Assembly (NCBI GenBank): GCA_964244585.1
Contig: CAXTJM010000018.1
Span: forward strand, 2,084 to 66,083
From: an uncultured Acetobacteraceae bacterium
GTDB taxonomy: Bacteria > Pseudomonadota > Alphaproteobacteria > Acetobacterales > Acetobacteraceae
Reading direction: 5' to 3'
Length of the DNA: 64,000 nucleotides
Part shown: piece after piece, positions 10,373 through 35,396 of the stretch
Numbering within the stretch: the first letter of the stretch is position 1
Layout: each line of letters starts with the position of its first letter
Translations under genes and position numbers: made by a program
The notes under the pieces: generated by a model
The model's input: the letters and a program-made list of their open reading frames with translations, nothing else
The model's database searches: none
What the model was told of the DNA's origin: nothing

Positions 10373-10400
10373 GGTGGCGGCGTGTAGTCCCGGAGCCTGC

Positions 10401-11402
10401 ATGCCGCAACCATCCTGGCATCCCGACCAGTTCGGCGCCCGCCTGCCCTTTCTGCGCCGGCGCGCCCGATTGGCCCAGGCGACGCGCGCCTTCTTCGACG
10501 CGCGCGGCTATATGGAGGTGGAGACGCCCTATGCCGTGCCCGTGCCTGGCGAGGACGTGCATCTGCGTGCCTTCCGCACCGAGCAGGTGGGCACTGACGG
10601 CGCCCGCACCCCGCTCTGGCTGCACACCAGTCCGGAATTCGCCATGAAGACGCTGCTGGTGGCGGGCGCCGGCCCGATCTTCCAGCTCGCCCGGGTCTGG
10701 CGCAACGAGGAAGGCAGCGACACCCATGCCGCCGAATTCACCATGCTGGAATGGTATCGCCCCGGCGCGTCGCTCGCGGCGCTGATGGACGAGACGGAAG
10801 CCCTGCTCCGTGCCGTCCTGCCGCCGGTGGTGCAATGCCGCGGCATCCAGACCGCCCTCGCCCCGTTCGAACGGCTGAGCATGGCCGAGGCGTTCGCGCG
10901 CTGGGCCGGCGTGGATGTCCTGGGTACCGCCGGCGACGCCGGGGCACTGGCCGGGCAGGCCGGCATCCGGTTGCGGGATGGCGAGACCTGGGAGGATCTG
11001 TTCTTCCGTCTGCTGCTGGACCGGGTGGAGCCGCATCTGGGCCGGACCACGCCCACCTTCCTGACCCAGTGGCCCGCCGAACAGGCTGCCCTTGCCCGCC
11101 GCGACCCGGACGAGCCGCGGGCGGCGCTGCGGTTCGAGCTGTTCGTCTGCGGCATGGAGCTGGCGAACGCGTTCGAGGAACTGACCGACGCGGCGGAGCA
11201 ACGCGCCCGCTTCGCCGCCGACCGTGCGCGGCGGGAGGCGCTGTACGGCAGCGAGTGGGAAACGGACGAGCGCTTTCTCGCGGCGTTGGCGCATGGCATG
11301 CCGCCGGCAAGCGGCATCGCCCTGGGTTTCGACCGCCTGGCGATGCTTGCGGCGGGGGCGGATCGGATCGAGCAGGTGACGTGGCTGCAGCCTGGTTGCT
11401 AG
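10401..11402 (+). CDS. epmA: EF-P lysine aminoacylase EpmA (GenX/PoxA)
   Basis: LHTSPEFAMK, FQLARVWRNEE, EFTMLEWYR, ELANAFEEL, SGIALGFDRL; lysyl-tRNA synthetase catalytic core without an anticodon domain. Confidence 0.95.
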   Translation: MPQPSWHPDQFGARLPFLRRRARLAQATRAFFDARGYMEVETPYAVPVPGEDVHLRAFRTEQVGTDGARTPLWLHTSPEFAMKTLLVAGAGPIFQLARVWRNEEGSDTHAAEFTMLEWYRPGASLAALMDETEALLRAVLPPVVQCRGIQTALAPFERLSMAEAFARWAGVDVLGTAGDAGALAGQAGIRLRDGETWEDLFFRLLLDRVEPHLGRTTPTFLTQWPAEQAALARRDPDEPRAALRFELFVCGMELANAFEELTDAAEQRARFAADRARREALYGSEWETDERFLAALAHGMPPASGIALGFDRLAMLAAGADRIEQVTWLQPGC

Positions 11403-15442: not shown

Positions 15443-15657
15443 ATCGGGCGTTCCCATGCGATGACTAATTGATGAAGCTCGGCCACGTCCGCACTTCAGT
15501 GTCTGGCGATGTTCCGTATACTGTCAATTAGGCGACGTGCCCGGCACGGCGATCAGTCGGACACTTCCGCTCCCTGACGGCACGAGCGTCCGACGCATGT
15601 TCAGCCAGCTGTGGGCCATGACGTCGGCACAATTGACACGCCGCCTGAAAGACACTC

Positions 15658-15729
15658 TGCCGGGTGAGGGATTTGAACCCCCGACCTTCGGTTTACAAAA
15701 CCGCTGCACTACCACTGTGCTAACCCGGC
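15658..15729 (-). tRNA. tRNA-Thr(TGT), CCA not encoded
   Basis: GCCGGGT acceptor, GCGGT-TT-TGT-AA-ACCGA anticodon arm, GGTTCAAATCC T-arm; followed by GAG rather than CCA. Confidence 0.93.
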
Positions 15730-15741
15730 ATTTCAGGGTCT

Positions 15742-15770
15742 GAACTAGACTGTAGTTGAAGGGCTTTCAA
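15742..15770 (-). promoter_or_regulatory. Putative sigma70 promoter for tRNA-Thr, overlapping an AGTTGAA/TTCAACT inverted repeat
   Basis: Minus strand TTGAAA-N17-TAGTTC 12 nt before the tRNA; 7-bp inverted repeat at 15754-15772. Confidence 0.4.
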
Positions 15771-15872
15771 CTCGCCCGTCAGCGGCCGGTCGAGCTGCCT
15801 TGGCGTTTCGCGGGCGGCCGGGCTTGGCATGGCGGGACGAAGCGGCCAAGTTTCCTGTGGGAGGGCTCGGCG

Positions 15873-17270
15873 ATGGCTCGGACGATGTTCGACAAAATCT
15901 GGGATCGGCACGTGGTGGCGGAGCTCGGCGAGGGCTGGGCGCTGCTGCACATAGACCGCCACCTGCTGCACGATCTCTCTGGCGGCCGTGCCCTGCAGGC
16001 GCTTGAGAAACGCGGCCTCACCGCCCGCAACCCCGAACTTGCTTTCGCCACGCCTGACCACGCGGTGTCCAGCGCACCGGGGCGGACGGCAGCCAGCTAC
16101 GGTCCGGGGGCGTTGCTGCATGAAGGCCTGCAAGCGCGGGCGCGGGCCAACCGCATCGCCTTTTTCGACCTGGGCGAGGATGGCCAGGGTATCGTGCACG
16201 TGATGGCGCCTGAACTCGGCATCGTGCTGCCGGGGACCACGCTGATCTGCGGCGACAGCCACACCTGCACCAATGGCGCGGTCGGGGCGCTGGCCTTCGG
16301 CGTGGGCTCGTCGGAGTTGACGCATGCCCTGGCGACGCAAACGCTGCGGCAACGCAAGCCGCGCAGCATGCGTTTGCGGTTCGAAGGTGTGTGCGGGCCG
16401 TATGTCGGTCCCAAAGACCTGATCCTGCACGCGATTGCCGTGCTGGGCGCCAAGGCGGGGACTGGCTACGCCGTGGAGTATGCCGGCGCAGCCGTGCGCG
16501 CGATGACCATCGAACAACGGTTGACGCTGTGCAACCTGTCGATTGAGATGGGCGCGAAGATGGGCATGATCGCGCCGGACGACACCACCTACGCCTATCT
16601 CCGGGACCGCCGCTTCGCTCCGCAAGGCGCCGCCTTCGTCGCTGCGATGGCAGAGTGGCGGCAGTTGCCGAGCGATCCGGGCGCGGTGTTCGAGCGGGAG
16701 GAGGTGATCGACGCCTCCATCGTGGCACCCACGGTGACCTGGGGCACGAGTCCGGAGCACGCGATCGGGGTCGATGGCCTCGTGCCGGATCCCGAAGCGT
16801 CGGCCAACCCGGCAATCCGCTCGGCTCAGGCGGCAGCGCTGCAGTACATGGACCTGCGGCCCGGGCAGCCCATCGCGGACACGAAGATCGACTGGGTGTT
16901 CATCGGCTCGTGCACCAACGGCCGGTTGTCCGATCTGCGGCAGGCCGCCTCCGTGCTCGGGGGCCGACGCGTGGCGCCCGGCGTCACTGCCTGGGTCGTA
17001 CCCGGCTCGGAGCGGGTGAAGCGCGATGCGGAAGCGGAGGGGCTCGACCGCTTGTTCCGCGACGCTGGCTTCGCCTGGCGGGAACCCGGATGCAGCATGT
17101 GCGTGGCCGCCAATGGGGAGCGTGTGCCGCCCGGCGCGCGGTCGGTCTCCACATCCAACCGCAACTTCGTCGGCCGGCAGGGCCCCGGGGCGCGCACCCA
17201 CCTCGCCAGCCCGGCGATGGCCGCCGCCGCCGCGTTGGCCGGACGCATCACCGACGTGCGGGAGATCTGA
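15873..17270 (+). CDS. LeuC-like aconitase-family [4Fe-4S] hydro-lyase large subunit (divergent paralog)
   Basis: FDKIWDRH, CGDSHTCT, IGSCTNGRL, PGCSMC, STSNRNF.GRQG; has HDLSGGRAL where canonical LeuC has HEVTSPQAF; no leuA or leuB nearby. Confidence 0.9.
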   Translation: MARTMFDKIWDRHVVAELGEGWALLHIDRHLLHDLSGGRALQALEKRGLTARNPELAFATPDHAVSSAPGRTAASYGPGALLHEGLQARARANRIAFFDLGEDGQGIVHVMAPELGIVLPGTTLICGDSHTCTNGAVGALAFGVGSSELTHALATQTLRQRKPRSMRLRFEGVCGPYVGPKDLILHAIAVLGAKAGTGYAVEYAGAAVRAMTIEQRLTLCNLSIEMGAKMGMIAPDDTTYAYLRDRRFAPQGAAFVAAMAEWRQLPSDPGAVFEREEVIDASIVAPTVTWGTSPEHAIGVDGLVPDPEASANPAIRSAQAAALQYMDLRPGQPIADTKIDWVFIGSCTNGRLSDLRQAASVLGGRRVAPGVTAWVVPGSERVKRDAEAEGLDRLFRDAGFAWREPGCSMCVAANGERVPPGARSVSTSNRNFVGRQGPGARTHLASPAMAAAAALAGRITDVREI

Positions 17271-17272
17271 CC

Positions 17273-17887
17273 GTGGAACAGTTCACCGTGCTCACCGGTA
17301 TGGCGGCGCCGTTGATGCGCGCGAACATCGACACCGATACCGTCATACGCATCGAGCGCTTGAGCAACACCGAGCCGGCCGACACCGCTCAGTGGCTGTT
17401 CGAGTCGCTGCGGTTCGACCCCGCCGGTCGGGAGAGACCCGACTTCGTGCTCAACCAGCCGCAGTTCCGCGACGCGCCGATCTTGCTGGCGGGCGAGAAT
17501 TTCGGCTGCGGGTCGTCGCGCGAGGGGGCTGTCTGGGCGCTGAAATACAGCGGCATACGCTGCGTGATCGCACCAAGCTTCGGGGATATCTTCGCGAACA
17601 ACTGCTACCAGAACTTCGTCCTTCCGGTGGCGCTGCCGGCCGACCAGGTGGAGCGGCTGGCTGCCGAATGCGCAGGCGGCAACGCCCGGGTGGTCGTCGA
17701 CCTTCGCCGAAAGGTGGTGGTGTCCCCGCACGGTGAGGAAATGCCGTTCGAGATCGAGGGGATCCGCCGGGACGCGCTCCTGGAGGGGCTTGACGAGATC
17801 GGGCTGACGTTGAAGCACGCGGCGGCGATCACGGCGTTCCAGGCGCGGGACAGGCAGGCGCGTCCGTGGGTCTGGCAGCCAGGATAA
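17273..17887 (+). CDS. LeuD-like hydro-lyase small subunit
   Basis: GTG start; RANIDTDTVI, GENFGCGSSREGAVWAL, SFGDIF.NN, LLEGLDEIGLTL. Confidence 0.92.
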   Translation: MEQFTVLTGMAAPLMRANIDTDTVIRIERLSNTEPADTAQWLFESLRFDPAGRERPDFVLNQPQFRDAPILLAGENFGCGSSREGAVWALKYSGIRCVIAPSFGDIFANNCYQNFVLPVALPADQVERLAAECAGGNARVVVDLRRKVVVSPHGEEMPFEIEGIRRDALLEGLDEIGLTLKHAAAITAFQARDRQARPWVWQPG

Positions 17888-17892
17888 GGCCG

Positions 17893-18663
17893 TCAGGCGG
17901 ACCGTGCCGCCATACGGCTTAGCCGCAGCATCACGGTATTGGCCCCCACGGCGAACAGCACGATCGCCAGCACCACCGCCGTGCTAAGCGCCACATTGTG
18001 TTGCGCCATGCCGCTGACCAGGAGGAAGCCCAACCCGCGTTGGGAGCTGAACATCTCACCGATCAGCACGCCCAGCAGCGTCAACGAGAAGCCCAGCCGC
18101 AGCCCGGCCACGATCTGCGGCAGGCAGGCCGGCAGCAGCACCCAGCGCATCGTCTGGCCGTGCGACAATCGCAGAGCGCGGGCAGTGCGCGGCAGCGCAG
18201 GCGGCAGGGTACGAACCGCGGCGATGGTGAACAGCGTGACCGGCACCAGGCCGTGCATGACGCCGAACGCCACCTTCGCGCTCAAGCCGAGTCCGAACAG
18301 CAGAAGGACGACCGGGTACAGCGTGACCTTCGGGATGGTGTAGAACCCGGCCAGCACCGGCTCCATCACATCGCCGGCGAAGCGGCCGACCCCAAGCACC
18401 AAGCCGAGCAGCAGGCCACACGCCGCCGATAGCACGAACGCCAGCAGGAAGGCCGCCATGGTCGCCCAGACCTGCCCCCAGAAGGCAGCCGTCACCACGA
18501 GCTGGCCGAGATAGGCGAAGGTCGTCAAGGGGCCGGTGATGGCCATTCCCCCCGTCCAGCGACCAACGGCCTGCCACACCAGCAGCACCACGACGAGCAG
18601 CAACACTACATCAAGGACGTTGCCGCCCGGCCGCACGACGTTGCGCGAAACCGCCGCGCTCAC
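17893..18663 (-). CDS. NitT/TauT family ABC transporter permease
   Basis: GTGA overlap with the upstream permease; YTIPKVTLYP, LPACLPQIVAGLRLG, GEMFSSQRGLG. Confidence 0.9.
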   Translation of the reverse strand: MSAAVSRNVVRPGGNVLDVVLLLVVVLLVWQAVGRWTGGMAITGPLTTFAYLGQLVVTAAFWGQVWATMAAFLLAFVLSAACGLLLGLVLGVGRFAGDVMEPVLAGFYTIPKVTLYPVVLLLFGLGLSAKVAFGVMHGLVPVTLFTIAAVRTLPPALPRTARALRLSHGQTMRWVLLPACLPQIVAGLRLGFSLTLLGVLIGEMFSSQRGLGFLLVSGMAQHNVALSTAVVLAIVLFAVGANTVMLRLSRMAARSA

Positions 18664-19421
18664 GACCGCGCGCGGCGCCGGACGAGCCGCCCCTCCCAGG
18701 TGTAGAGCACGATGTTGGCAAGGACCGCGACCAGCAGCACGAACAGCATCAGCCCGTACATCGTGCGGGTGTCGAACGCCTGGTATGCATACGAGATCGC
18801 GTAGCCGAGGCCACTGCCCGACAGGATGAACTCGCCCGCGATCACGCCGATGAGGGCGTAGCTCAAAGCCAGCTTGAAACCGCCGAAGAGTGACGGCATG
18901 GCGGCAGGCAGCATGACGGAAAAGAAGGTGCGCGCACGCCCGAGCCGCTGCACGCGCGCCACCTTGCGCAGGACCGGAGTGATGCTGTCCAGTCCGGACA
19001 CCGTGCTGATCACCATGGCCGGCACGGCGGACAACACGCCCAGCACCACCAGCGGCGCCATGCTCAGCCCTAGCAGCGCAACCAACAGCGGGTAGAACAC
19101 GAAGGTCGGCACCGAGTAGTAGGAGGCGAGCAGGGGATCGATCGCCCGGCGCAGCCGCGGCGCCGCATGCAGGGCCGCCCCCAAGGCCGTCCCACCCGTC
19201 ACGCTGCACATCCACGCCAGCGCCACGGTGCTGAAGGTCTGCAGCGTCGGCTCGGTGGCGGTGCCCGACCAAAATGCCTCCGCCATGGCCGCTACCATCC
19301 CGCTCGGCGGCAACACGGCTTGCGGATCGATCAACCCGCCCCGGCACGCAGCTTCCAGCAGCAGGACGCAGCCCGCCAGCAATGCCGCCCGCACCAGCAG
19401 GACCGTGCGGCCCCGCGTCAC
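18660..19421 (-). CDS. NitT/TauT family ABC transporter permease
   Basis: GTGA overlap with the ATPase gene; YYSVPTFVFYP, LPAAMPSLFGG, AGEFILSGSGLG. Confidence 0.9.
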   Translation of the reverse strand: MTRGRTVLLVRAALLAGCVLLLEAACRGGLIDPQAVLPPSGMVAAMAEAFWSGTATEPTLQTFSTVALAWMCSVTGGTALGAALHAAPRLRRAIDPLLASYYSVPTFVFYPLLVALLGLSMAPLVVLGVLSAVPAMVISTVSGLDSITPVLRKVARVQRLGRARTFFSVMLPAAMPSLFGGFKLALSYALIGVIAGEFILSGSGLGYAISYAYQAFDTRTMYGLMLFVLLVAVLANIVLYTWEGRLVRRRARS

Positions 19422-20206
19422 GCAGTGTGGCCCATGGCACGCAGCGACTCGGCCCGCAGCGAGGTCCATAGCCGCGCCGTAAGCTCGCCGAAATGCGGGT
19501 CGGACACGATGCGGCTGTCGCGGTCGCGCGGCCAACCGGTCGTCACCAGGTCGATGAAGGTGCCCGGCCGGGCCGACATCACGCCCACCCGGTCGGACAG
19601 CATCGCAGCCTCGTCCAGTGCGTGCGTGATCAACAGCACGGTGGCGCCCGTCTGCCGCCAAAGCCGCAGGAGTTCGTCGCCCATCAGCAGCCTGGTCTGC
19701 TGGTCCAGCGCGCCGAACGGCTCATCCAGCAGGATCAGCCGCGGCTGCTGCACCAACGTGCGCGCGATGCAGACGCGCTGCCGCATGCCGCCCGAGAGTT
19801 GCGCCGGGTAGTGCCCGACGAACTGCGTCAGGCCCATGAATGCGATCGCCCCGTCGACCCGGCGGTCGACCTCGGCGCGGCGCAGACCGGAGCGGCGCAG
19901 GCCGAAGGCGACGTTGTCGCGCACGGTCAGCCAGGCGAAGCTCGAATCCTCCTGGAACACCACGCCGACGCCATCCGGCACCTCGCCCCTGACCGGCTTG
20001 CCCTCGAAGCTGATGCTGCCCTCACTTGGCACGCCCAGCCCGGACAGCACGTCCAGCAAGGTAGACTTGCCGCAGCCCGAGGGGCCGACGACCGAGAAGA
20101 ACTCTCCCGGCGCCAATTCCAGGTCGACCGGGCCCAGCGCGTGGGTGGTCTGCTTGCCGGCATAACGCCGGGTCACGCCGCGAAGAATGGCGTGCGGCTC
20201 GGCCAT
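19418..20206 (-). CDS. NitT/TauT family ABC transporter ATP-binding protein
   Basis: GPSGCGKST, LSGGMRQR, ILLDEPFGALD, ITHALDEA. Confidence 0.95.
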   Translation of the reverse strand: MAEPHAILRGVTRRYAGKQTTHALGPVDLELAPGEFFSVVGPSGCGKSTLLDVLSGLGVPSEGSISFEGKPVRGEVPDGVGVVFQEDSSFAWLTVRDNVAFGLRRSGLRRAEVDRRVDGAIAFMGLTQFVGHYPAQLSGGMRQRVCIARTLVQQPRLILLDEPFGALDQQTRLLMGDELLRLWRQTGATVLLITHALDEAAMLSDRVGVMSARPGTFIDLVTTGWPRDRDSRIVSDPHFGELTARLWTSLRAESLRAMGHTA

Positions 20207-20207
20207 G

Positions 20208-21197
20208 TCAGCGTGCGGCGCGCTGGTCCGGCGGCAGGAAGGCGGTGTCGACCATCGTGGACCAGTTCGGCGCATCCTTGAGCTGGCCGGTGATCTGCAA
20301 GCCCTCGACCATATGGTTCATGCCCTCGTAGTCCAGGCGGCCATCGCTCCAGTAGTCGTCGGCCACCAGTTCCTTCATATGCGTGCGGTACAGGGCAACG
20401 TCCGGGTTGTTGTACGCCTTGGCCAGGATATCGGCCGACTCGTCCGGATGCGCCCGGATGTAGTCGAGCCCCTCCTTGCGCGCGGCGATGATCCCGCGGA
20501 CGACCTCCGGATGATCATGTGCGAACGCGACGGTGGTGACGCATACGGTCTGCATCATGCGGGGGGACATGACGTCCTTGACCCAGAACACCGGCTGGAT
20601 CGCACCGGGATTTTGCGAGAAGGTGAGTGTGTCGGTGAAGCCCGCATCCACCGCGCCGCTGGTGATCGCGGACAGGTTGGACCCAAGATCGCCGGCAGGA
20701 ACGAGACGGACCTGCTGCGCCGTCATGCCGTTCGCCTTCAGGGCCATCAGGATGATCATGTTGGAGACGGAATTGGGCGCGGTGAACGCGATACGCTTTC
20801 CGGCCAGGTCCTTGATGCTGTCCAGGGGAGACCCCTTCTTCGCCGCCCATAACTGGTCCGCCACGCTCTGCGCGCCCGCCGACGTTATCACGAGTTTCTG
20901 CCCGGCGTTGATCGCCTGTACCGCCGCCGCAAGCGAAACCTCCCCGAACGGGATGTCGCCCGCTATCGTGTTGCGCACGGCCGTTCCGCCGCCGGGCGCG
21001 GTGAGGATGCCGGTGATGTCCACGCCATGCTGCTTGAAGAAGCCTTTCTCCATGGCGACGGCATAGGGCGCCCCATAGAACTGGCCGCCCCAATGGGTGA
21101 CCGTGATGGTGTCGGCCCAGGCAGCGGTGCTGGCCATGAAACCCAGGCAGGCGACCACGGCACCCGCGACGGCACGGCCCTTTGCTCGTAACGCCAT
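20208..21197 (-). CDS. NMT1/SsuA-like ABC substrate-binding protein
   Basis: Signal peptide ending AWA; AVAMEKGFF, GKRIAFTAPNS, GAVDAG; followed by the TauB/TauC-type genes. Confidence 0.88.
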   Translation of the reverse strand: MALRAKGRAVAGAVVACLGFMASTAAWADTITVTHWGGQFYGAPYAVAMEKGFFKQHGVDITGILTAPGGGTAVRNTIAGDIPFGEVSLAAAVQAINAGQKLVITSAGAQSVADQLWAAKKGSPLDSIKDLAGKRIAFTAPNSVSNMIILMALKANGMTAQQVRLVPAGDLGSNLSAITSGAVDAGFTDTLTFSQNPGAIQPVFWVKDVMSPRMMQTVCVTTVAFAHDHPEVVRGIIAARKEGLDYIRAHPDESADILAKAYNNPDVALYRTHMKELVADDYWSDGRLDYEGMNHMVEGLQITGQLKDAPNWSTMVDTAFLPPDQRAAR

Positions 21198-21394
21198 CTT
21201 CAACTCCCCACTCCGCCGCCTCTTACCCGGCCGCGTTCGGCGGGACGCTAACATGCCCGCCGGTACAGCGGAAACGCTGTCTGGCGACGCCGGCGATCAT
21301 TTCCAAGCCGTGACCTTGGCAGACCTCCGGGTGGTGCCGACACCCGATCGCCTGTCGATCGATGCCGACCACAGGGCGCCGCCTCGTCTCCGGA

Positions 21395-22279
21395 TCACTC
21401 TGCCGCGGCCTTCACCTCGGGACCTTCGCGAAAACGGGTGCGCAGGGCATTCCACTCGTCGGCGCCGAAGCGGCGGAACCGGTCACCCACCTTCATCTGC
21501 CCGGCACTCGAGGGCGGCCTATCGGTGTCGCGCACGCTCGCCAGCACGGCGTCACAGGCGGTCATGACGGTGCTGAGCAGGAGGCTCGGCATGATCGCCA
21601 CGCGATAGCCCATCGCTTGCGCGTCCGACAGCGCGATGTCCGGCGTCTTGCCAGCCACCACGATGTTCAGCAGGCACGGGCCGTGGACCAGGCGCGGAAT
21701 CGCCTCCACCTCCTCCAGGCTTGCTGCCGCCTCCACGAAGGCGATGTCCGCGCCCGCATCCAGCGCGGCGTTGGCGCGGCCCACGGCTTCGTCCAAGCCG
21801 GCGATGGCGCGTGAGTCCGTGCGGGCGATCACGACGAAATCCGGATCGGTGCGGGCAGCGACGGCGGCGCGTATCTTGGCCACGAACTCCTCCCTCGGGA
21901 CCACCTCCTTGCCGTCCAGGTGACCGCAGCGCTTCGGCATGACCTGGTCTTCGATATGCAGGCCGGCGACCCCGCCGCGCTCGTATTCCATCACGGTGCG
22001 GGTCACGTTCAGCTCGTTGCCATAGCCGGTATCGGCGTCGGCGATGAGCGGCACGCCGGCCGCACGCGCGATCATGGCGGCATTCGCCGCCATCTCCGTC
22101 AACGTCAGCAAACCGAGATCGGGGTAGCCTCGCGCCATCGAAGTGCCGGCCCCGGTCATGTACAGGCAGTCGAACCCGGCCTGTTCCGCCAGCCGGGCGG
22201 TGATCCCGTCATATACGCCAGGCGCGCGGACCATGCGGCCGGATGCGAGCAACTCGCGCAGTTTGCGGGCGCTTGTCAT
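21395..22279 (-). CDS. Isocitrate lyase/PEP mutase superfamily C-C lyase (methylisocitrate/2,3-dimethylmalate lyase-like)
   Basis: APGVYDGITAR, IADADTGYG, HIEDQVMPKRCGH (catalytic Cys loop), IARTD. Confidence 0.9.
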   Translation of the reverse strand: MTSARKLRELLASGRMVRAPGVYDGITARLAEQAGFDCLYMTGAGTSMARGYPDLGLLTLTEMAANAAMIARAAGVPLIADADTGYGNELNVTRTVMEYERGGVAGLHIEDQVMPKRCGHLDGKEVVPREEFVAKIRAAVAARTDPDFVVIARTDSRAIAGLDEAVGRANAALDAGADIAFVEAAASLEEVEAIPRLVHGPCLLNIVVAGKTPDIALSDAQAMGYRVAIMPSLLLSTVMTACDAVLASVRDTDRPPSSAGQMKVGDRFRRFGADEWNALRTRFREGPEVKAAAE

Positions 22280-22686
22280 TGTACCGTCTCCTGCTGTTCG
22301 GCGGACATTTCGGCCCGGACCGTCACATAGACCTGGCCGTCGCGCACCGTGACCGGGTAGAAGCGCAGCCTGGTCGGGACCGGGCGGAACATCTCCATCC
22401 CGGTGTCGAGATCGTATTCCCAGCCATGCCACGGGCACGCCAGCACCTCGCCCTCGCGGTCATACACCAGTGCGCCGGGCTGGCTCGGCAGCCAGGTCCC
22501 GCCGACGATGCCGCGGCAGATCGGCGCACCCTTGTGCGGGCAGTAATTCCGCACCGCCCGCAATTGCCCGTCGCGCAGACGCACCACGCCGATAGCCTGC
22601 CCGGGAATGTCGACCATGACGAACCGGCCGGCGACGAAGCGCTCCTCCGGCCCGACACCGACCTCCGTCTTCGCGCGCAACGCCAT
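22276..22686 (-). CDS. Rieske [2Fe-2S] ferredoxin
   Basis: NYCPHKGAP...LACPWHGWEYD (CxH...CxxH); stop/start overlaps with both neighbours. Confidence 0.93.
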   Translation of the reverse strand: MALRAKTEVGVGPEERFVAGRFVMVDIPGQAIGVVRLRDGQLRAVRNYCPHKGAPICRGIVGGTWLPSQPGALVYDREGEVLACPWHGWEYDLDTGMEMFRPVPTRLRFYPVTVRDGQVYVTVRAEMSAEQQETVQ

Positions 22687-23807
22687 CAGGCCGGCAGCCG
22701 CAGCACGTCGCGGGCGTTGCTGCGGAAGATGCGGTCGCGGTCCTCCGGCGCCAGCGAACGCAACGACTGCATCGGCATGTCGTTGTCCCAGTGTGGGTAG
22801 TCCGTGCTGAAGCACAGGTTCTGCACGCCCACCATCTTCACCAGGCGTTCCAGGTCGCGGGGGTCCCGCGGCTCCTCGATCGGCTGGGTGGTGAACCAGA
22901 CATGCTCGTTCACGTAGTCGATCGGCGATTTCTTGACCCATGGCACCTCGTGCCGCAGGCCGCGCCAGAGGCGGTCCATGCGCAGCATCACGGGGATCGG
23001 CCACACGAAGCCATATTCCACGAACAGGATGCGCAGGCGGGAGAAACGCTCGAACAGTCCGTTCATGATCATGCTGTTGAGGTTGGCTTCCGCCCCCTGG
23101 CCCAGCGTGACGTAACGCTCGATATACGTATCGGGCATGCCGCCGGCCGGCATCGGCGCGCCATTGTACACGCCTTCGGACCCGGTGACGTGCAGCAGGA
23201 TGGGCAGGTCCATGTCGGAGGCAGCCTCGAACACGGGCCACCAGTAGCGGTTGCCGAACAGGATCGCGATCGGCGGCACGGCAACGGCGCAGACCTGGGC
23301 GTGCCCGCCGACACGGCGAATCTCGGCCGCCGCGGCAAGCGGGTCCTGGGCGGACACCACCGGCGCATAGACCAGGCGGCGGTCGAGCGGCAGCCATTGG
23401 TCGAGGTAGTAGTCGTTGGCCGCCTGTGCGATCACGATGCTTTCGTCGGCCGAGGCGTGGACCGAACAGAATGCGCCGGTTTGCAGGCTGTTCAGCAACG
23501 CGACCGAGATGTCGTTCGCGTCCAGGTGGTCCTTGATGAGGAAATGCGGATCGCTGCCGCCCGGGCCGCCGCTATCCGGCCTGGCGTCATCGCGCACGAC
23601 CGTCCCGTTGGGATGCGCGTAGCGCAAGGTGAGGCCACCACCGGATTGATGCGCCCGCTTGCGGACGAAACGCTGCCTCCAGGCGTCCGCCATGTAGGGA
23701 TAGAGGCTGCGGATGCCGTCGGCGAGCAACGGGTGCACGTCGCAGTCGACGATGCCGTGACGGTGCGTCTGCGAGGCCTGCGCAAGCGTCTGGGTGATGT
23801 CGTCCAT
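22686..23807 (-). CDS. Amidohydrolase_2-fold protein, probable PtmU3/AibH-type dinuclear-metal oxygenase
   Basis: IVDCDVH, ILLH, LFVEYG, WFTTQPIEEP, FSTDYPHWD; coupled to a Rieske gene. Fold confident, oxygenase function inferred. Confidence 0.8.
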   Translation of the reverse strand: MDDITQTLAQASQTHRHGIVDCDVHPLLADGIRSLYPYMADAWRQRFVRKRAHQSGGGLTLRYAHPNGTVVRDDARPDSGGPGGSDPHFLIKDHLDANDISVALLNSLQTGAFCSVHASADESIVIAQAANDYYLDQWLPLDRRLVYAPVVSAQDPLAAAAEIRRVGGHAQVCAVAVPPIAILFGNRYWWPVFEAASDMDLPILLHVTGSEGVYNGAPMPAGGMPDTYIERYVTLGQGAEANLNSMIMNGLFERFSRLRILFVEYGFVWPIPVMLRMDRLWRGLRHEVPWVKKSPIDYVNEHVWFTTQPIEEPRDPRDLERLVKMVGVQNLCFSTDYPHWDNDMPMQSLRSLAPEDRDRIFRSNARDVLRLPA

Positions 23808-23819
23808 GATGCCTTCCGG

Positions 23820-25211
23820 TCAGTCGTTGAGCAGCAATGCGTCGGCTGGCCCCGCTGCCGTCTCGGCCTCGGCAGCGATCGCTTCCAAGGAGCGGTTGCT
23901 GGTCTCATGGCCCAACAGGATCACCGCAAGGGCCATCAACGCCATGCTGCCGCTGAGGAAGCCTGCGACGCCACCGATCCCGAAGGCGCCGAAGACCAGC
24001 ACGATGACGAAGCCGACCTGGCTGGAGGTCAGGCGGCTGATCCCCAGCACGACGGACGCGCCGCGCAGCCGCAGCCGGGTCGGGAACATCTCCGGGATGT
24101 AGAGCGCGAAGCCCACCGCGACGATCGCATAGGCGCAGAGCGTCACGCCGGACCCGACGGCGATCAGTTCGATACCGTTGCCGACCATCGGATACGCCGC
24201 TCCCAGCACTGCCTCGCATAGGGCAAGGCATGCCAGGCTGCGGACCCGTCCGACCCGGTCGGCGATGAAGGCGCCGAGCAGCGCCCCCAGGGGGGCGCCG
24301 AGGCCCATGATGCCGGAGAACCAAAGAGACGAGCCGATCGACAGCCCTTGCTTCACCAGGAAGGTCGGGATCCAGGAAAGAAAGCCATACAGGCTGACGC
24401 CGCTGACACATGCGATGATGATGCCGAGCAAGGTGTTGCGGACCAGTCCGGGAGCCAGAAGCTCGCCATAGCGCCCCGGTGCCGGTGTCTCCTCCACTGC
24501 GTCGACCACGGGCGGCAGCGGGCCGGACCGCGCCGCCTCGGCCTCGATCGCGAGCAGCATGGCCTCTGCCTCGGCGGCACGGCCGCGCGATTCGAGCCAG
24601 CGCGGTGATTCCGGCATGTTCTTGCGCAGCGCCCAGACGATGAGTGCGCTGGCGCCCACGATGGCGAACAACCATCGCCAGCCGATCGCCGGGATCAACC
24701 AGGCGCCGCCCAGCCCGGTCACTGGCACCGCCAGGTTCGTCACCATGGACAGCAGCGCCACGTACCGGCCGCGTTTGGCCCGCGGCATGAATTCCGCCAG
24801 GCTGGAGTAGCCGACCACGATCTCGGCACCTAAGCCGATGCCCATGACGAAGCGGATGGCGATCAGCACCGTCATGTTGGGCGCGAACGCCGCAGCGATG
24901 GAGGCCAGGCCGAACAACATCAGGTTCACCTGGTAGCAATAGCGGCGGCCGTAGCGGTCGCCGAGCCAGCCGGCGGCGAAGGTGCCGCAAAGCATGCCCA
25001 GGAACGTCGCCGACATGAACCGCGCGTTGGCCGCAAGGTCCGACCAGCCGGATTTCACCAGCGACCCGAGCACGCCGCCCGCCAGGTAGATGTCACAGGC
25101 GTCCAGGAACATGCCGAGCCCCACCAGCCAGAGCACCCGGCGGTGGAAGCTGCCGATCGGCAATCGGTCCAGGCGCGCACCGGCATTCGTCCTCGTGGCG
25201 CCAAGCTGCAT
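23820..25211 (-). CDS. MFS transporter (aromatic/organic acid:H+ symporter-like)
   Basis: RLDRLP, GWLGDRYGRR (motif A), EFMPRAKRG, ESPRWL, PEMFPTRLR. Confidence 0.93.
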   Translation of the reverse strand: MQLGATRTNAGARLDRLPIGSFHRRVLWLVGLGMFLDACDIYLAGGVLGSLVKSGWSDLAANARFMSATFLGMLCGTFAAGWLGDRYGRRYCYQVNLMLFGLASIAAAFAPNMTVLIAIRFVMGIGLGAEIVVGYSSLAEFMPRAKRGRYVALLSMVTNLAVPVTGLGGAWLIPAIGWRWLFAIVGASALIVWALRKNMPESPRWLESRGRAAEAEAMLLAIEAEAARSGPLPPVVDAVEETPAPGRYGELLAPGLVRNTLLGIIIACVSGVSLYGFLSWIPTFLVKQGLSIGSSLWFSGIMGLGAPLGALLGAFIADRVGRVRSLACLALCEAVLGAAYPMVGNGIELIAVGSGVTLCAYAIVAVGFALYIPEMFPTRLRLRGASVVLGISRLTSSQVGFVIVLVFGAFGIGGVAGFLSGSMALMALAVILLGHETSNRSLEAIAAEAETAAGPADALLLND

Positions 25212-25303
25212 CAAACGGCTCCCGACATCGTGCTGCCCGGTCTGCTCGCGCCGAACTTCGTCACACAATGGCTCCGGTTCCACTGAAAGGCAACGAAGCT
25301 GGT

Positions 25304-25330
25304 TCGACCGGTCGATCCACGGACCGGTCG
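25304..25330. promoter_or_regulatory. Tandem GACCGGTC palindromes, putative operator upstream of the MFS-led operon
   Basis: Perfect 12-bp palindrome TCGACCGGTCGA (25304-25315) and a second GACCGGTCG 16 bp downstream. Confidence 0.4.
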
Positions 25331-25492
25331 TTATCTCGATGGCGGTCTTGAGGGTGTTCGATGCCTGCAGACCCCCGCCTGACTGCCAGGGATACGTGCG
25401 ACGGACCCAGCCCTGAAGGCGGCCGCACCGTTGACCCCAATCTCACCGTGTGGCGTCCTCCGCAGGGTGAGAAGGACAACAGAGGCACACAC

Positions 25493-26677
25493 ATGACGCT
25501 AGGGGTCGCGGACGAGGAGCAAACCCCTCGGTCGATCGGCATTCTGCCAATTCACGTTCTGACCAACGCACCGGTCATCTCACTGCCCGGCAACGGCCTT
25601 CTGACCAATGCCGCTGCACCGCTGGTGACCGGGACGGCGACGCCTGCATCCGAAGTTCACATCTATGACGGAGCGGCCCAGGCCGGCATCGCAACTGCCG
25701 ACCCGTCGACCGGCACCTGGCAATCGGCGCTCTCCGGGGTATCGGCCGGCTTCCAGCAGGTCACCGCCATGTCCTCTGGCCCGGGCGAGTTCAGCTCCCT
25801 GCCCTCCGCGGCGGTGAATGTCTTCGGCTTATCCGCGCCGGTGAACGGCGTAAGCAGCGTAGACGTGGCGTCCGTGGACATCGCATCAGTTCTTGGCCAG
25901 GGGTTTGGACTGCAGTTCGTAGCCGGGACGGAGGCCGTGCAGTTATTGGACAGCACGCTGAGCGTGGGTCCGGACACCGACGCCGCCTATGTCGCCCGAC
26001 TGTTCCAGGGCTTGTTCGGCACGGTACCGGACAGCAGTAATCTAAGCGTTTGGACCAACTACCTGGCAGCAGGGCATAGCTATACGGACGTCGCCGCTGG
26101 TTTCCTGCAAGCTCCCGTCGCTGCCGCCATAACCGCACTGCCGGATGCCGGTTACGTGCAGCAGCTGTTCACTGGCCTGCTCGGCCGGGCGCCCTCGGCA
26201 TCGGAGTCAGGTGCGTACACTGCGGTCCTCGCAGCAGGAGCGTCCCGGGCATCCGTACTGGCGGGCATCGCCGATGCACCAGAGGCGAAGGTCGCATTGG
26301 CGTCGCAGACGGCACGGCTGTTCGTGACGGACAGCGCGAAGCAAGTCGTAAACAACATGTTCGAAGCCGGGCTTGGACACGAAGCCACCCAGCCGGTGGT
26401 GCAAGGGCTTGCAGCCAACATCGATGCCGGATTGATGGCGCCTCAACTGGCGCAGGAAGTCGCGAGCACGCCGGAGTTTCTCGGGCTGCATGCGGGCGAA
26501 ACCAACGCAGCCTATGTCGCGGACATCTACACGGCCGGGCTTGGCCGCGCACCGACCAGTGCGGAGGTGACCTTCGACGTTGGCAACCTGGAATCGGGTG
26601 TGTTCAGCCGCTCGACGATACTGGCGGCCATCGCAAATTCACCAGAGGCCATGGCGCATTTGACGCATCCGCTGTGA
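25493..26677 (+). CDS. Surface protein with one Ig-like repeat and about three DUF4214 repeats
   Basis: TNAAAPLVTGTATPASEVHIYDG...ADPSTGTW (Bap-type Ig); YVQQLFTGLLGRAPS, IYTAGLGRAPT, SRSTILAAIANSPEA (DUF4214-like). Start uncertain (25361 or 25493); no signal peptide seen. Confidence 0.75.
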   Translation: MTLGVADEEQTPRSIGILPIHVLTNAPVISLPGNGLLTNAAAPLVTGTATPASEVHIYDGAAQAGIATADPSTGTWQSALSGVSAGFQQVTAMSSGPGEFSSLPSAAVNVFGLSAPVNGVSSVDVASVDIASVLGQGFGLQFVAGTEAVQLLDSTLSVGPDTDAAYVARLFQGLFGTVPDSSNLSVWTNYLAAGHSYTDVAAGFLQAPVAAAITALPDAGYVQQLFTGLLGRAPSASESGAYTAVLAAGASRASVLAGIADAPEAKVALASQTARLFVTDSAKQVVNNMFEAGLGHEATQPVVQGLAANIDAGLMAPQLAQEVASTPEFLGLHAGETNAAYVADIYTAGLGRAPTSAEVTFDVGNLESGVFSRSTILAAIANSPEAMAHLTHPL

Positions 26678-26917
26678 AGGATCGGATACCGGGTAGGGCA
26701 GGCCGCAAGCTCTCGCCGCAATTCAACTTTCCTATGGCGACGGATGCAAACGATGTGATCAAACGGTGATCGCCGCCTGTGGCGGCCATCGATGAGCTTG
26801 GAGAGTGGACAAATATGCTCGTTTCTGTCACAAATGGGATAGTTGCACGTTGATACTTGCAACAGCGGCTATGTCCACCTTGCACCAGCGGCAACTCGTT
26901 CCACTCGACACACGGTG

Positions 26918-28801
26918 ATGGACGGCACGGCCTTCGAGCCGCTCGGGATATTGCTGCAACGCTTCCTGGTGGAGCGGCCAGTCGATCGGCGTCCCCTGTA
27001 TTGGAGCGCCGCAGCTGGACACCCCGCCGCGACCACGCAGCCCAGGGTAACCTGTCGAGCCGACAGCCTGGTCGTGACACAGGGGACCATCCTCAGCTTC
27101 GACACGTATTTCAACAGCTTCTTCGAAGCACACTGGCGCCGGCACACGTCGCTCGGCGCCGTCGTGCTCCGGCTGGTGGTGCAAGGCGCTGGTATGCTGA
27201 GGGTGTTCCGCCGCGCCGTGGGCCGCAAGGTCTTGGTGCACGAACAGCCGCTCGACGCCGACCACGTCACAATCAGGCTGCCGAACGAGGCGGTGACGTT
27301 CCGCCAGTATGGCACGCTCTGCGTGGAGTTGGAGGCGGACAGGTCAGACCTCGTCTTCGTCGCCGGCGGCTGGTGGAGCGACGCGCCGGCCCCGGCGGAT
27401 GTCGGTCTGGCCGCCGTGTTCTGCACGTTCGGCCGGGAGGCCGAGATCACCCGGCTTGTGGGCACGGTGGCAAACGATGCGGAAGCCGCGGCAACGCTGG
27501 CGCGGCTCATCGTCGTCAACCAGGGCAAGCCGGGCCTGGCCGGCCATCCAGTGATGCAGGACGCCGCCTTGTCCCTGGGCATGAAGCTTGCGGTCGTGGA
27601 GCAAGGCAATTTCGGCGGCGCCGGCGGGTTCGGTCGCGGCATTTTGGCTGCACTGGATGATCCGGCAGCGACGCATGCGGTGCTGCTCGACGACGACATC
27701 CTGATCGAACCGGACAGCCTGCTGCGGATGGCCGCTTTCTTCGCCTTCTGCCGCCGCGACATGGTGGTGGGCGGCCACATGCTCGACCTGGTGCAGCCAA
27801 ACCTGCTCTACGAGGCCGGCGCCGTCGTGTCGGACCGGCATTGGGAGTTCAAGCCGCAGCACCATGGTCTTGCACTGGACGAACCGTCCGCCCTTGAGAC
27901 CCTCGCGAGGCCGGGCGCTGTCCACTACAATGGCTGGTGGTGCTGCGGCTTTCCCCTGGCGATCGTGGAGGAGTACGGTATGCCGCTGCCGTGCTTCATC
28001 CGCGGCGACGACGTGGAGTTCGGCCTGCGGCTGCACATGAACGGCATCCCGACGGTATCGATGCCCGGCATCGCCGTGTGGCACGAACCGTTCTACCTCA
28101 AGCTCGGCGCGTGGCAGCCTTTCTACGAGACGCGCAACCTGCTGATCGCTGCCTCGCTCCACCTGGCGCCGAGCCGTTCGGGTGCGGTGCGCCGGATCGG
28201 ACGGCAATTCGTGGTAAACCTGCTGACCTTCCGTTACTACACTGCGGCCCTCATGCTGGCGGCGATCGAGGATTTCCTTCGTGGGCCCGGCAAAATGCAT
28301 GATAATCCGGCCGAGCTGCATGCAAGCCTGGCAGCGTTCCGCATCGCGTATCCGCCACGGACGACCCGGCGGGAGACAGTGTTGGAGCCGCAGATTCTGC
28401 GCCGCAGCCCGCGCACCCGGTTCGCCTGCATCGCCTTGCTCGTATACCTCACGCTCCGGAATGCCGTTGTCCCGACGGGAACGACGGTCGCCAAGACGCT
28501 CGATGTGGCCGACCTGAATTGGCTCACGATGCGGGATGTCGAACACATCGCGATCGAGCGCTGGTGGGATGACGAGCTGCCGACCGTCCGCCGGTCGCGC
28601 GAACATCATCGTGCCCTGCTGCGCCGGGCCATCTCGGTTCTATCCCGTCTGTATCGCGACCTTCCGGCGATGGCGGCGGCGTGGCGGAGCGAAGTGCCAG
28701 TGCTCACATCGCAAGCTTTTTGGCGCAGCTACCTTGGGGTGCCAAGCCGGGGCGGCGTCATGTCGGGCGAACCCACGGCCCCGGTCACGTCAGACGCTTG
28801 A
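26918..28801 (+). CDS. GlfT2-like galactofuranosyltransferase (GT2)
   Basis: SFDTYFNSF...HWRRHT N-domain, NFGGAGGFGRG, LLDDDILIEPDSL, YNGWWCC, LPCFIRGDDVEFGLR; coupled to glf. Confidence 0.85.
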   Translation: MDGTAFEPLGILLQRFLVERPVDRRPLYWSAAAGHPAATTQPRVTCRADSLVVTQGTILSFDTYFNSFFEAHWRRHTSLGAVVLRLVVQGAGMLRVFRRAVGRKVLVHEQPLDADHVTIRLPNEAVTFRQYGTLCVELEADRSDLVFVAGGWWSDAPAPADVGLAAVFCTFGREAEITRLVGTVANDAEAAATLARLIVVNQGKPGLAGHPVMQDAALSLGMKLAVVEQGNFGGAGGFGRGILAALDDPAATHAVLLDDDILIEPDSLLRMAAFFAFCRRDMVVGGHMLDLVQPNLLYEAGAVVSDRHWEFKPQHHGLALDEPSALETLARPGAVHYNGWWCCGFPLAIVEEYGMPLPCFIRGDDVEFGLRLHMNGIPTVSMPGIAVWHEPFYLKLGAWQPFYETRNLLIAASLHLAPSRSGAVRRIGRQFVVNLLTFRYYTAALMLAAIEDFLRGPGKMHDNPAELHASLAAFRIAYPPRTTRRETVLEPQILRRSPRTRFACIALLVYLTLRNAVVPTGTTVAKTLDVADLNWLTMRDVEHIAIERWWDDELPTVRRSREHHRALLRRAISVLSRLYRDLPAMAAAWRSEVPVLTSQAFWRSYLGVPSRGGVMSGEPTAPVTSDA

Positions 28802-29973
28802 GCCTCCTCCCTGAACCGTCGCGCGTGGGCCGGCCGGAGCCTGTCGCGCCGTTCGACTGGCTGGTCGTCGGGGCCGGGTTCGCCGGTGCGACGCTGGCCG
28901 GACAACTCGCCCGTGTGCGGGGCGACCGCGTGCTTGTGGTGGATCGGCGCGACCATGTCGGCGGCAACGCCTACGACGAGTACGATGCGGCGGGCGTTCT
29001 GGTGCATCGCTACGGTCCACACATCTTCCACACGAATTCCTCCGCGGTTTTCGAGTACCTGTCCGCGTTCACGGAGTGGCGGTTCTACGAACACCGCGTC
29101 TTGGGCCGAGTGGATGGTATGCTGTTGCCCATCCCGATCAACCTCGACACGGTCAACCGGCTATACGGTCTGGACCTGAACGGCGCGCAGCTTGAAGCAT
29201 GGTTCGCTGCGCGCGCGGAACCCGTCGACGTCGTTTGTACCTCCGAGGATGTCGTCGTCTCGCGCATCGGACGAGCGCTGTACGAGAAGTTCTTCCGTGC
29301 CTACACGCGCAAGCAATGGGGATTGGACCCCTCGCAGCTCGATAAGTCGGTCACAGCGCGCGTGCCCATTCGGACTGATCGGGACGACCGCTACTTCACC
29401 GACGCCTTTCAGTTCATGCCGCTGCACGGATACACCGCGATGTTCGAGCGGATGTTGCAGCATCCGAACATCGAGGTACGCGTCGGGACGGAACACGGCG
29501 CCGTGCGAGGGCTGGGGCGGCGCACCATCTGGACCGGGCCGGTGGACGAGTATTTCGGCCATTGCTACGGCAAGCTGCCCTACCGCTCGCTCCGGTTCCG
29601 CCATGAGACGGTGGCGCAGGCGCAGTTCCAACCGGTCGGAACGGTGAATTACCCGCAGGACGAGGAATTCACCCGCATCACCGAGTACAAGCACCTGACC
29701 GGGCAGGTCTGCGACGTCACCAGCCTGACCTACGAGTATCCAGCCGCGGACGGCGACCCGTACTATCCCGTGCTGAGGCCGGAGACGCAACTCATGTACA
29801 GGCAGTACGAGGCACGAGCCGACGCGGAAGCAGACACTTGGTTCGTTGGGCGGCTGGCGACGTACCGGTATTTGAATATGGACCAGGTCGTGGGCCAGGC
29901 GCTTGCCACGTTCCGTCGCATTCAGGCCAGCGTGGCAACGGCGTCGAACCCGCACCCACCGGTCGCGCGTTGA
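28798..29973 (+). CDS. glf: UDP-galactopyranose mutase
   Basis: VVGAGFAG, GGNAYD, HRYGPHIFHT, YTRKQWG, FTRITEYKH, GDPYYP, GRLATYRYLNMDQ; TTGA overlap with the transferase gene. Confidence 0.96.
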   Translation: MSLLPEPSRVGRPEPVAPFDWLVVGAGFAGATLAGQLARVRGDRVLVVDRRDHVGGNAYDEYDAAGVLVHRYGPHIFHTNSSAVFEYLSAFTEWRFYEHRVLGRVDGMLLPIPINLDTVNRLYGLDLNGAQLEAWFAARAEPVDVVCTSEDVVVSRIGRALYEKFFRAYTRKQWGLDPSQLDKSVTARVPIRTDRDDRYFTDAFQFMPLHGYTAMFERMLQHPNIEVRVGTEHGAVRGLGRRTIWTGPVDEYFGHCYGKLPYRSLRFRHETVAQAQFQPVGTVNYPQDEEFTRITEYKHLTGQVCDVTSLTYEYPAADGDPYYPVLRPETQLMYRQYEARADAEADTWFVGRLATYRYLNMDQVVGQALATFRRIQASVATASNPHPPVAR

Positions 29974-30136
29974 AGGCCCGTGCCGGCGCATGATTCGGGC
30001 GACGTGCCGTTGGACTGTGGAAGTGGCGCGCGGAGCATAGCTGCCCAGCCGTGTCGACACCCCCCTCATCCAAACAGGATTTGTCGGCGGGGCCTCCGCT
30101 TCCCCATACTGCCGACAAAATTGGGGAGCAGCCGTC

Positions 30137-33846: not shown

Positions 33847-33928
33847 GCGTCTGCCCGGAAGACTGCAGCGGTCCTCGTCCCACCTTCCGCGGAAGGGAGC
33901 GGGCTTGCCATGATGGAGGCGACCACCA

Positions 33929-35386: not shown

Positions 35387-35396
35387 AGGAGCCTCC

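Follow-up and report, generated by a model that had tools for sequence, protein, structure and literature searches.

A predicted ARO-type dinuclear oxygenase and its probable Rieske ferredoxin partner in a four-gene module of a lichen-associated Acetobacteraceae bacterium

Amidohydrolase-related dinuclear oxygenases (AROs) are recently recognised C-H-activating metalloenzymes, almost none of which has a known substrate, and some of them use a Mn/Fe cofactor, a rarity in biology. PtmU3 is reportedly a member of the class dating from 2019. The AibH1H2/AibG/AibF system followed in 2021 (PMC7782822) and its Mn/Fe cofactor in 2023 (PMC10401708), and in 2024 a search by Rieske neighbours yielded 3,307 candidates together with SfbO (PMC10811679). 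Rules for metal preference were published in 2026 along with ~17,000 predicted AROs, ~12,000 of which were classed as diiron (PMC13154177). Here, we analysed a stretch of 64,000 nucleotides from an uncultured Acetobacteraceae bacterium (GenBank assembly GCA_964244585.1, contig CAXTJM010000018.1, positions 2,084 to 66,083; hereafter the window), in which a gene annotated by its Pfam family as an amidohydrolase overlaps a gene for a small Rieske protein (Table 1). With a probability of roughly 0.8, we consider the 373-aa protein to be a low-potential (L-type) ARO and the product of the overlapping 136-aa gene to be its dedicated Rieske [2Fe-2S] ferredoxin. The enzyme class is already established, and the window oxygenase is presented as a further member of it.

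A phmmer search of the oxygenase against all Protein Data Bank (PDB) chains returned AROs as the strongest matches, namely 8SM7 (4.8e-69), AibH2 (1e-54), SfbO (1.1e-52), AibH1 (2e-50), 8SM9 (7.5e-49), 8SM8 (4.8e-45) and PtmU3 (4e-17), followed by the non-ARO proteins LigW (5-carboxyvanillate decarboxylase, 5e-12), γ-resorcylate decarboxylase (4e-9) and ACMSD (2e-5). Three of these structures correspond to named sequences, 8SM7 being D3EI84 from Geobacillus sp. Y412MC10, 8SM8 being B6JH23 from Afipia carboxidovorans and 8SM9 being W7L2Y2 from Cytobacillus firmus (PMC10811679 supplement). When a profile built from 115 homologues was used, the gap between ARO and decarboxylase scores was larger still. 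An AlphaFold2 model computed from the 115-homologue alignment reached a mean predicted local distance difference test (pLDDT) score of 90.1 and a predicted template-modelling score (pTM) of 0.89, and a Foldseek search of the PDB with this model reproduced the phmmer ranking, with 8SM7 (E 1.8e-30, template-modelling (TM) scores 0.87/0.93, ~36% identity) ahead of AibH2 (~4e-28), SfbO (7e-28), PtmU3 (1e-17) and ACMSD (~1e-14), the top 20 matches being AROs throughout. No NCBIfam model matched the oxygenase, and its homologues are named 'amidohydrolase family protein' or 'TIM-barrel metal-dependent hydrolase' by their sources, the kind of label that a first-pass annotation of this DNA, made from the sequence alone, had expected of automated pipelines. 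A tblastn search found no second PF04909 paralogue in the window, so the hydroxylase is expected to be homo-oligomeric like SfbO rather than an AibH1H2-type heteromer, in keeping with the single-subunit enzyme proposed in that annotation.

AROs are defined by a D-x-H motif on the first barrel strand and a C-terminal D-x-P-H-x-[D/E] loop, and neither motif occurs in any characterised hydrolase or decarboxylase of the same fold (Liu et al., PMC13154177). The oxygenase contains both, as D23-V24-H25 and D336-Y-P-H339-W-D341, the latter lying, as the definition of the motif specifies, at least ~200 residues into the protein. The stretches DCDVH (residues 21-25), LLH (204-206), FVE (262-264), FTTQPIEEP (305-313) and STDYPHWD (334-341) each occur once, and in alignments H206 and E264 line up with the remaining His and the bridging Glu ligands of SfbO, AibH2 and 8SM7. 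D23, H25, H206, E264, D336, H339 and D341 are invariant among the 115 homologues (50-85% identity), as are P338 and W340. The model places D23 in strand 19-24 and H25 just past it; H206 is the last residue of strand 203-206, E264 comes right after strand 260-263, and the final barrel strand precedes D336, H339 and D341, so that all seven site residues are at, or a few residues beyond, the C-terminal ends of barrel strands. D23, H25, H206, E264, D336 and H339 are the predicted metal ligands, with D341 placed provisionally in the second shell, and the presence of both D-x-H and D-x-P-H-x-D points to a site of other than the mononuclear type.

To collect relatives, we searched one genome per species with an oxygenase profile. 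The 80 loci retained (numbered with an L prefix below) have 36-94% identity and come from Alpha- and Betaproteobacteria, Bacillota, Actinomycetota and other groups. A Rieske gene adjoins the ARO gene in 75-76 of these 80 loci, immediately downstream of it or, in one Hyphomicrobiaceae group, immediately upstream, and three of the four loci lacking an adjacent Rieske gene (L006, L015 and L021) are short contigs, two of which stop less than ~50 bp from the oxygenase gene. These data bear on whether the protein could instead be a redox-inert PF04909 hydrolase, hydratase or decarboxylase of the LigI, LigJ, LigW or ACMSD type, containing one Zn/Mn or no metal, that merely neighbours an unrelated Rieske gene. 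Such an enzyme would share the Pfam family and the automated amidohydrolase names of the homologues, and LigW, γ-resorcylate decarboxylase and ACMSD do appear as weak matches; these decarboxylase matches nevertheless lie 30-60 orders of magnitude below the ARO matches, the D-V-H and D-Y-P-H-W-D motifs are foreign to the characterised hydrolases and decarboxylases of the fold (PMC13154177), and the Rieske gene both overlaps the oxygenase gene translationally and stays beside it across the related loci. We consider a redox-inert enzyme extremely improbable. The first-pass annotation had read the pair as a monooxygenase system rather than a hydrolase, and the ARO-defining motifs, the invariant ligands and the adjacent Rieske genes bear this out, as does the absence of clustering with ACMSD or LigW (AROs at 1e-45 to 1e-69 versus 5e-12 to 2e-5 by phmmer, and ~1e-30 versus 1e-14 by Foldseek). 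The sequence motifs on which it drew are all where it had located them, as are the TGATG overlap and the insertion in the Rieske protein. Its inference was correct for this gene, but the logic was not new, discovery through Rieske neighbours having been published in 2024 (PMC10811679).

The ligands of the Rieske protein are C49-P-H51 and C84-P-W-H87, two pairs 32 residues apart, and in a set of 75 homologues C49, H51, C84 and H87 never vary. Between the pairs, residues 62-80 (window 22447-22503) form the insertion GGTWLPSQPGALVYDREGE, and when the protein is aligned with the canonical Rieske domain of stachydrine demethylase (3vca), a 15-residue gap falls exactly at this point. Of 77 partner Rieske proteins, 76 share this spacing of 32 residues between C-x-H and C-x-x-H, ~15 above that of canonical Rieske proteins, and the last has 33 (consensus CPHkgAp.CkG...GT.lps.pge...g..ge.lrCPWH), indicating that the insertion characterises the ARO-partner clade as a whole rather than this one gene. 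An AlphaFold2 model of the Rieske protein (pLDDT 84.4) showed a small soluble Rieske-ferredoxin fold, in which the insertion is a loop without regular secondary structure (pLDDT 74-82). Its best PDB matches, a NirD-like protein, CarAc, BphA3, NDO ferredoxin and T4moC, reached only E ~1e-6, and none of the PDB matches is a solved structure of a partner Rieske protein of this clade. Sources often label the partner Rieske proteins 'nitrite reductase small subunit'; with its oxygenase called an 'amidohydrolase', the locus is an example of systematic misannotation.

The published rules read metal preference from three second-shell positions, and Mn-dependent, low-potential AROs are those with a hydrophobic γ1 (the x of D-x-H), a hydrophilic γ2 (where strand 2 ends) and an aromatic γ4 (the x of P-H-x-D) (PMC13154177). 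The corresponding residues of the window oxygenase are V24 (γ1), N106 (γ2), S334 (γ3), W340 (γ4) and N342 (γ5), with N106 directly past strand 100-105 in the model and aligned with T108 of SfbO, and all three predictive positions, V24, N106 and W340, agree with the Mn-dependent class. The nearest solved relatives, D3EI84, SfbO, W7L2Y2 and B6JH23, were assigned to the same class, and a Mn(III)Fe(III) cofactor was formed by B6JH23 in assays (PMC13154177). Judged by these residues, the cofactor of the oxygenase is probably Mn-containing (Mn/Fe or other) rather than Fe/Fe. Of the earlier proposal of a Fe/Fe, Mn/Fe or Mn/Mn hydroxylase, the dinuclear part stands, and the choice is narrowed, the residue rules predicting a Mn-containing site and speaking against Fe/Fe.

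An ARO with a physiological diiron cofactor, either of the high-potential type or cambialistic and loaded with Fe/Fe in vivo, would be in line with the ~12,000 of ~17,000 predicted AROs classed as diiron (PMC13154177), with the activity of SfbO with Fe/Fe and with the redox-active Fe2 sites in which the four AROs of the 2024 study were crystallised or reconstituted (PMC10811679). Against it stand the residues V24, N106 and W340, all within the Mn-dependent class, the L-type assignment of the closest solved relatives, and the finding that Rieske ferredoxins accompany L-type AROs and are largely absent beside diiron H-type AROs (PMC13154177). We regard a diiron cofactor as improbable.

The electron supply of the pair was investigated by a Pfam scan of every sizeable open reading frame (ORF) at positions 1-54437, the sequence beyond consisting of ribosomal-protein and housekeeping genes called by eye. 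No ferredoxin-reductase-type gene other than that of BoxA was found in the window, and BoxA, which is grouped with BoxB, BoxC, a benzoate-CoA ligase and a regulator in a separate cluster, is an unlikely candidate for the missing reductase. A 651-aa flavoprotein encoded at 13502-15457 was rejected as well, being a complete PHBH-type monooxygenase (NF006144, 1051 bits) that is not syntenic in L001, the closest relative; the gene lies on the minus strand, and its product is of the phenol 2-monooxygenase type with a C-terminal dimerisation domain. In L001, a reductase-like gene 8.5 kb downstream was likewise set aside, its 427-aa product, of unconfirmed identity, resembling by eye the flavoprotein of assimilatory nitrite/sulfite reductase.

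Two other relatives, L003 (79% identity) and L004 (73%), have genes for a ~105-aa Fer2 ferredoxin and a 393-aa Pyr_redox_2/Reductase_C reductase between the Rieske and lyase genes (L003:11521-13016; L004:11538-13021), so that these operons encode a plant-type ferredoxin as well as a Rieske protein. The in-operon reductases are independent evidence for the oxygenase/Rieske pair as a redox system, and the ferredoxin and reductase are ready redox partners for reconstitution. In tblastn searches, neither reductase (L003, L004) nor the ferredoxin of L003 gave a match to the window. That the reductase is encoded elsewhere, as had been proposed from the lack of an adjacent gene, is consistent with the window scan and strengthened by the L003 and L004 operons. 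A Fer2 and reductase pair was also observed in L039 and L049.

We infer the route of the electrons, the metals and the reaction as follows. Electrons from NAD(P)H would pass to a flavoprotein reductase encoded outside the window, possibly together with a plant-type ferredoxin, then to the Rieske cluster and on to a dinuclear site with its metals at the mouth of the TIM barrel. This site would be built of D23 and H25 from strand 1, H206, H339 and the bridging residues E264 and D336, while D341 would form a hydrogen bond to a metal-bound water. In its reduced state the site would bind O2 and hydroxylate a C-H bond of a small anionic substrate.

Several observations tell against an L-type, Mn-containing ARO served by this Rieske protein. 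The homologues with biochemical data are all at or below ~40% identity, the AlphaFold model is metal-free, so that ligand placement was judged from alignments and strand positions, and SfbO, as mentioned above, turns over with Fe/Fe too. The metal rule was built on 15 characterised proteins (PMC13154177). A Pyr_redox_2-type ferredoxin reductase, the only type for which the 80 loci were searched, is encoded nearby in just 6 of them, and the recurrent neighbour clusters include no other reductase family; a donor encoded elsewhere in the genome accordingly appears to be the norm in the clade. In addition, γ5 is Asn342 (window 22782-22784), a non-aromatic residue with at least 90% conservation in the clade, whereas an aromatic or hydrophobic γ5 has been proposed to dock the Rieske partner, an aromatic one by stacking on a Trp of that protein; according to the same authors γ5 is not decisive, the validated L-type ARO F4KXV9 having Ala at this position (PMC13154177). 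Asn was observed at γ5 in 60 of 80 motif-bearing ARO ORFs of the related loci, a sample biased by the inclusion of DYPHWDN among the search patterns, and a Rieske neighbour is nearly universal there. The near-invariant γ5 Asn and the conserved 32-residue Rieske loop could define a mode of docking unlike the Trp-Trp stacking proposed for SfbO and SfbR.

The oxygenase and Rieske genes belong to a set of four closely spaced genes on the minus strand (25283-21395), which encode an MFS transporter, the oxygenase, the Rieske protein and a lyase. The oxygenase gene starts with ATG, 12 nt after the MFS stop codon and preceded by a GGAAGG ribosome-binding site 6 nt upstream; its TGA (22688-22686) has one base in common with the Rieske ATG (22686-22684), and the Rieske stop in turn overlaps the lyase ATG as ATGA (22276-22279), an overlap that the first-pass annotation had not included. 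Five Acetobacteraceae genomes (L001-L005, 73-94% identity) share the order MFS-ARO-Rieske-lyase; their flanks otherwise differ, three of the five having a divergent LysR regulator.

The lyase has the catalytic loop EDQVMPKRCGH, and the KRCGH loop is present in all five lyases of L001-L005. Its best PDB matches are fungal 2,3-dimethylmalate lyase (3fa3, 1e-64) and oxaloacetate acetylhydrolase (3lye, 1.2e-62), ahead of 2-methylisocitrate lyases (~1e-48) and phosphoenolpyruvate (PEP) mutase (3e-37), and it scored under every NCBIfam equivalog cut-off, including that of prpB (271 versus 354). By sequence, the third gene of the oxygenase-Rieske-lyase series is in the lyase branch of the PEP-mutase/isocitrate-lyase superfamily, encoding a C-C lyase rather than a P-C mutase. 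A link to phosphonates, as might be read from the PEP-mutase family and from a 'Phosphonate-bd' hit, was rejected on the KRCGH loop and on scores far below the PEP-mutase and phosphonopyruvate-hydrolase cut-offs, the NMT1/SsuA family being the better fit for the binding protein, whose gene is not conserved with the module. In L001 (94% identity), a second PEP-mutase/isocitrate-lyase paralogue with an EDQEFPKKCGH loop was observed right after the lyase gene (L001:12410-13309), which is lacking in the window.

From a 2-hydroxy-dicarboxylate, lyases of this branch release a 2-oxo acid together with a carboxylic acid. The simplest reading of the module, a tentative one that we hold at somewhat below an even chance, is that a small acid would be imported, hydroxylated to a 2-hydroxy-dicarboxylate (a substituted malate) and cleaved by a retro-aldol reaction, the MFS transporter being the probable substrate importer. 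An ARO in a compact conserved module with a lyase of well-understood chemistry narrows the possible oxygenase product, and the lyase partner permits a simple coupled assay of pyruvate or glyoxylate release, by which one clade could be de-orphaned. The proposal is weakened by the restriction of the lyase link to one ortholog group plus L007, and by the transporter, which belongs loosely to the aromatic-acid/H+ symporter family; this MFS family is best known for aromatic acids, a poor fit with a malate-type product.

The ARO and Rieske protein might instead catalyse a different reaction, such as oxidative N- or O-dealkylation, desaturation or oxidative decarboxylation, with the lyase acting elsewhere in the pathway, for example after dealkylation. 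The sole known reaction of SfbO is an N-dealkylation via a hemiaminal, BarH-like AROs perform oxidative decarboxylation (PMC13154177), the neighbours of related AROs vary widely, and the MFS transporter comes from an aromatic-acid family. On the other side, the lyase start overlaps the Rieske stop, and the four genes travel together in five genomes with differing flanks. Isocitrate-lyase-family enzymes that have the KRCGH loop require a 2-hydroxy acid as substrate, and hydroxylation would supply one directly. We find a different reaction rather unlikely.

The neighbours of the ARO genes in the 80 loci include family III CoA transferases (19), short-chain dehydrogenases/reductases (16), acyl-CoA dehydrogenases (9) and aldehyde dehydrogenases (9), and more rarely HIBADH-like proteins (7), PrpD-like proteins (6), RraA-like aldolases (6) and HMG-CoA-lyase-like proteins (5), an organic-acid catabolic setting that fits a clade of small-carboxylic-acid hydroxylases with differing substrates. 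In its boldest form, which we consider unlikely, the proposal is that the module could be an undescribed CoA-free two-step route in which a substituted succinate, or a similar small di- or tricarboxylate, is hydroxylated at an unactivated C-H bond and then cleaved, with the alternative Rieske docking beside it. A full-text literature search for family terms gave only two papers, both from the Rittle group, and the 2024 supplement lists no PEP-mutase/isocitrate-lyase neighbour; within the scope of these searches, the coupling of an ARO to such a lyase is a lead without a published precedent. The source organism being a lichen-associated member of the Acetobacteraceae, the family of the nearest genomes, a lichen-derived aliphatic acid is one conceivable substrate. 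One lichen-metagenome sequencing run held 99% of the sampled words of the operon (21395-25283) and several others held parts of it; the runs holding the operon were of lichen-metagenome DNA only, and no RNA runs were found. LeuCD-like genes (15756-17887) were dismissed as part of a substituted-malate pathway, since they score above the leuC and leuD equivalog cut-offs, lie on the opposite strand and are not found in the syntenic L001.

Table 1. Coordinates of the features discussed, counted from the first letter of the window.
Feature	Position	Strand	Basis or context
MFS transporter	23820..25283	(-)	PF07690, E 1.7e-37; TIGR00895 162.7 bits, under its cut-off
Predicted ARO-type dinuclear oxygenase, 373 aa	22686..23807	(-)	PF04909 (Amidohydro_2), E 3.8e-29, whole profile spanned
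TGATG stop/start overlap of the oxygenase and Rieske genes	22684..22688	(-)	Direct sequence reading
Rieske [2Fe-2S] ferredoxin, 136 aa	22276..22686	(-)	PF00355, E 3.3e-15
PEP-mutase/isocitrate-lyase-superfamily C-C lyase (predicted), 294 aa	21395..22279	(-)	PF13714, E 9e-48
ABC transporter: SsuA/NMT1-type binding protein, ATPase and two permeases	17893..21254	(-)	Pfam, NCBIfam
BoxA (4Fe-4S + NAD_binding_1)	32644-33846		~9 kb from the oxygenase pair, in the benzoyl-CoA oxidation cluster

The ABC transporter genes follow the lyase gene on the same strand after a gap of ~140 nt; they are common to the window and L001 only and do not occur in L002-L005, so their link to the module is weak. No promoter-like sites were found in 17500-26000, where terminator-like sites were fewer than in shuffled sequence, and an Rfam search of 15000-30000 returned a tRNA only and no riboswitch. 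The tRNA gene (15658-15729, minus strand, 71.7 bits) is flanked by leuC and the gene for the phenol monooxygenase.

Upstream of the module, a plus-strand gene (25361-26677) encodes a 438-aa DUF4214-repeat protein that was not picked by a gene caller based on GC content at third codon positions (GC3), and it is followed by genes for a GlfT2-like galactofuranosyltransferase and a UDP-galactopyranose mutase (26915-29973, plus strand). Positions 32644-40490 hold a complete-looking aerobic benzoyl-CoA (box) cluster encoding the BoxA-like reductase, a BoxB-like diiron epoxidase (a weak PaaA_PaaC match), a BoxC-like protein of the enoyl-CoA hydratase family, an alpha/beta hydrolase, an AMP-forming ligase and a divergent regulator with helix-turn-helix and shikimate-kinase domains. 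Elongation factor P (EF-P), a lysine-2,3-aminomutase-like radical SAM protein and a truncated class II lysyl-tRNA-synthetase-like protein are encoded at 8724-11402, a set that looks like EF-P beta-lysylation of the EpmA/EpmB type. Two class II aldolase/adducin-domain genes occupy opposite strands at 47684-50366. A long ORF on the minus strand there (48497-50017) overlaps the ORF of a D-2-hydroxyacid dehydrogenase on the plus strand (49089-50366), which means that one of these two genes cannot fill its ORF.

Compared with described systems, the lyase shares the PEP-mutase/isocitrate-lyase fold and the E-D-Q-x-x-x-K-R-C-G-H loop with 2,3-dimethylmalate lyase (3FA3) and PrpB, but it scores under the prpB cut-off and is encoded outside any prp operon. 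Among the AROs, the diiron H-type enzymes PtmU3 and DitZ belong to the same superfamily as the window oxygenase and have the D-x-P-H-x-[D/E] motif, but they are farther off (E 4e-17 and 1.7e-7, respectively), with a hydrophilic γ1, an aromatic γ2 and, for the most part, no Rieske neighbour. The 2-aminoisobutyrate monooxygenase AibH1H2/AibG/AibF of Rhodococcus wratislaviensis (6M1W, 8FUN) resembles the window system in combining a TIM-barrel dinuclear hydroxylase with a Rieske ferredoxin; it has a Mn/Fe cofactor, hydroxylates an aliphatic C-H bond of a small acid and is encoded in a catabolic operon. The Aib hydroxylase includes a second paralogue, AibH1, in its heterotetramer, whereas the window has one such gene; its operon encodes the reductase AibF (FMN/[2Fe-2S]), whereas the window operon has no reductase gene; and its downstream chemistry involves dehydrogenases and a decarboxylase, where the window has a C-C lyase. 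In several of the more distant loci (L047, L052, L054, L065, L066 and L076-L080), a tandem ARO-like paralogue ~1-4 kb upstream of the matched gene lacks D-x-P-H-x-D and resembles the non-catalytic AibH1.

SfbO from Litorilinea aerophila (8SM6), cambialistic with Mn/Fe or Fe2, has the same ligand set, the γ4 Trp and a Rieske partner (SfbR). Its sulfonate-binding R232 and R235 are replaced by Y232 and L235 in the window oxygenase, suggesting that the substrate differs from the surrogate of SfbO, and its γ5 is Trp where the window has Asn. The closest counterpart is D3EI84 (8SM7), an orphan L-type ARO that is the best match to the window oxygenase in both sequence and fold. It differs in having Phe rather than Asn at γ5, a Bacillota host and another genomic context, and it shares with the window oxygenase the DxH and DYPHWD motifs, the absence of a second paralogue, a Rieske gene nearby and the Mn-dependent class.

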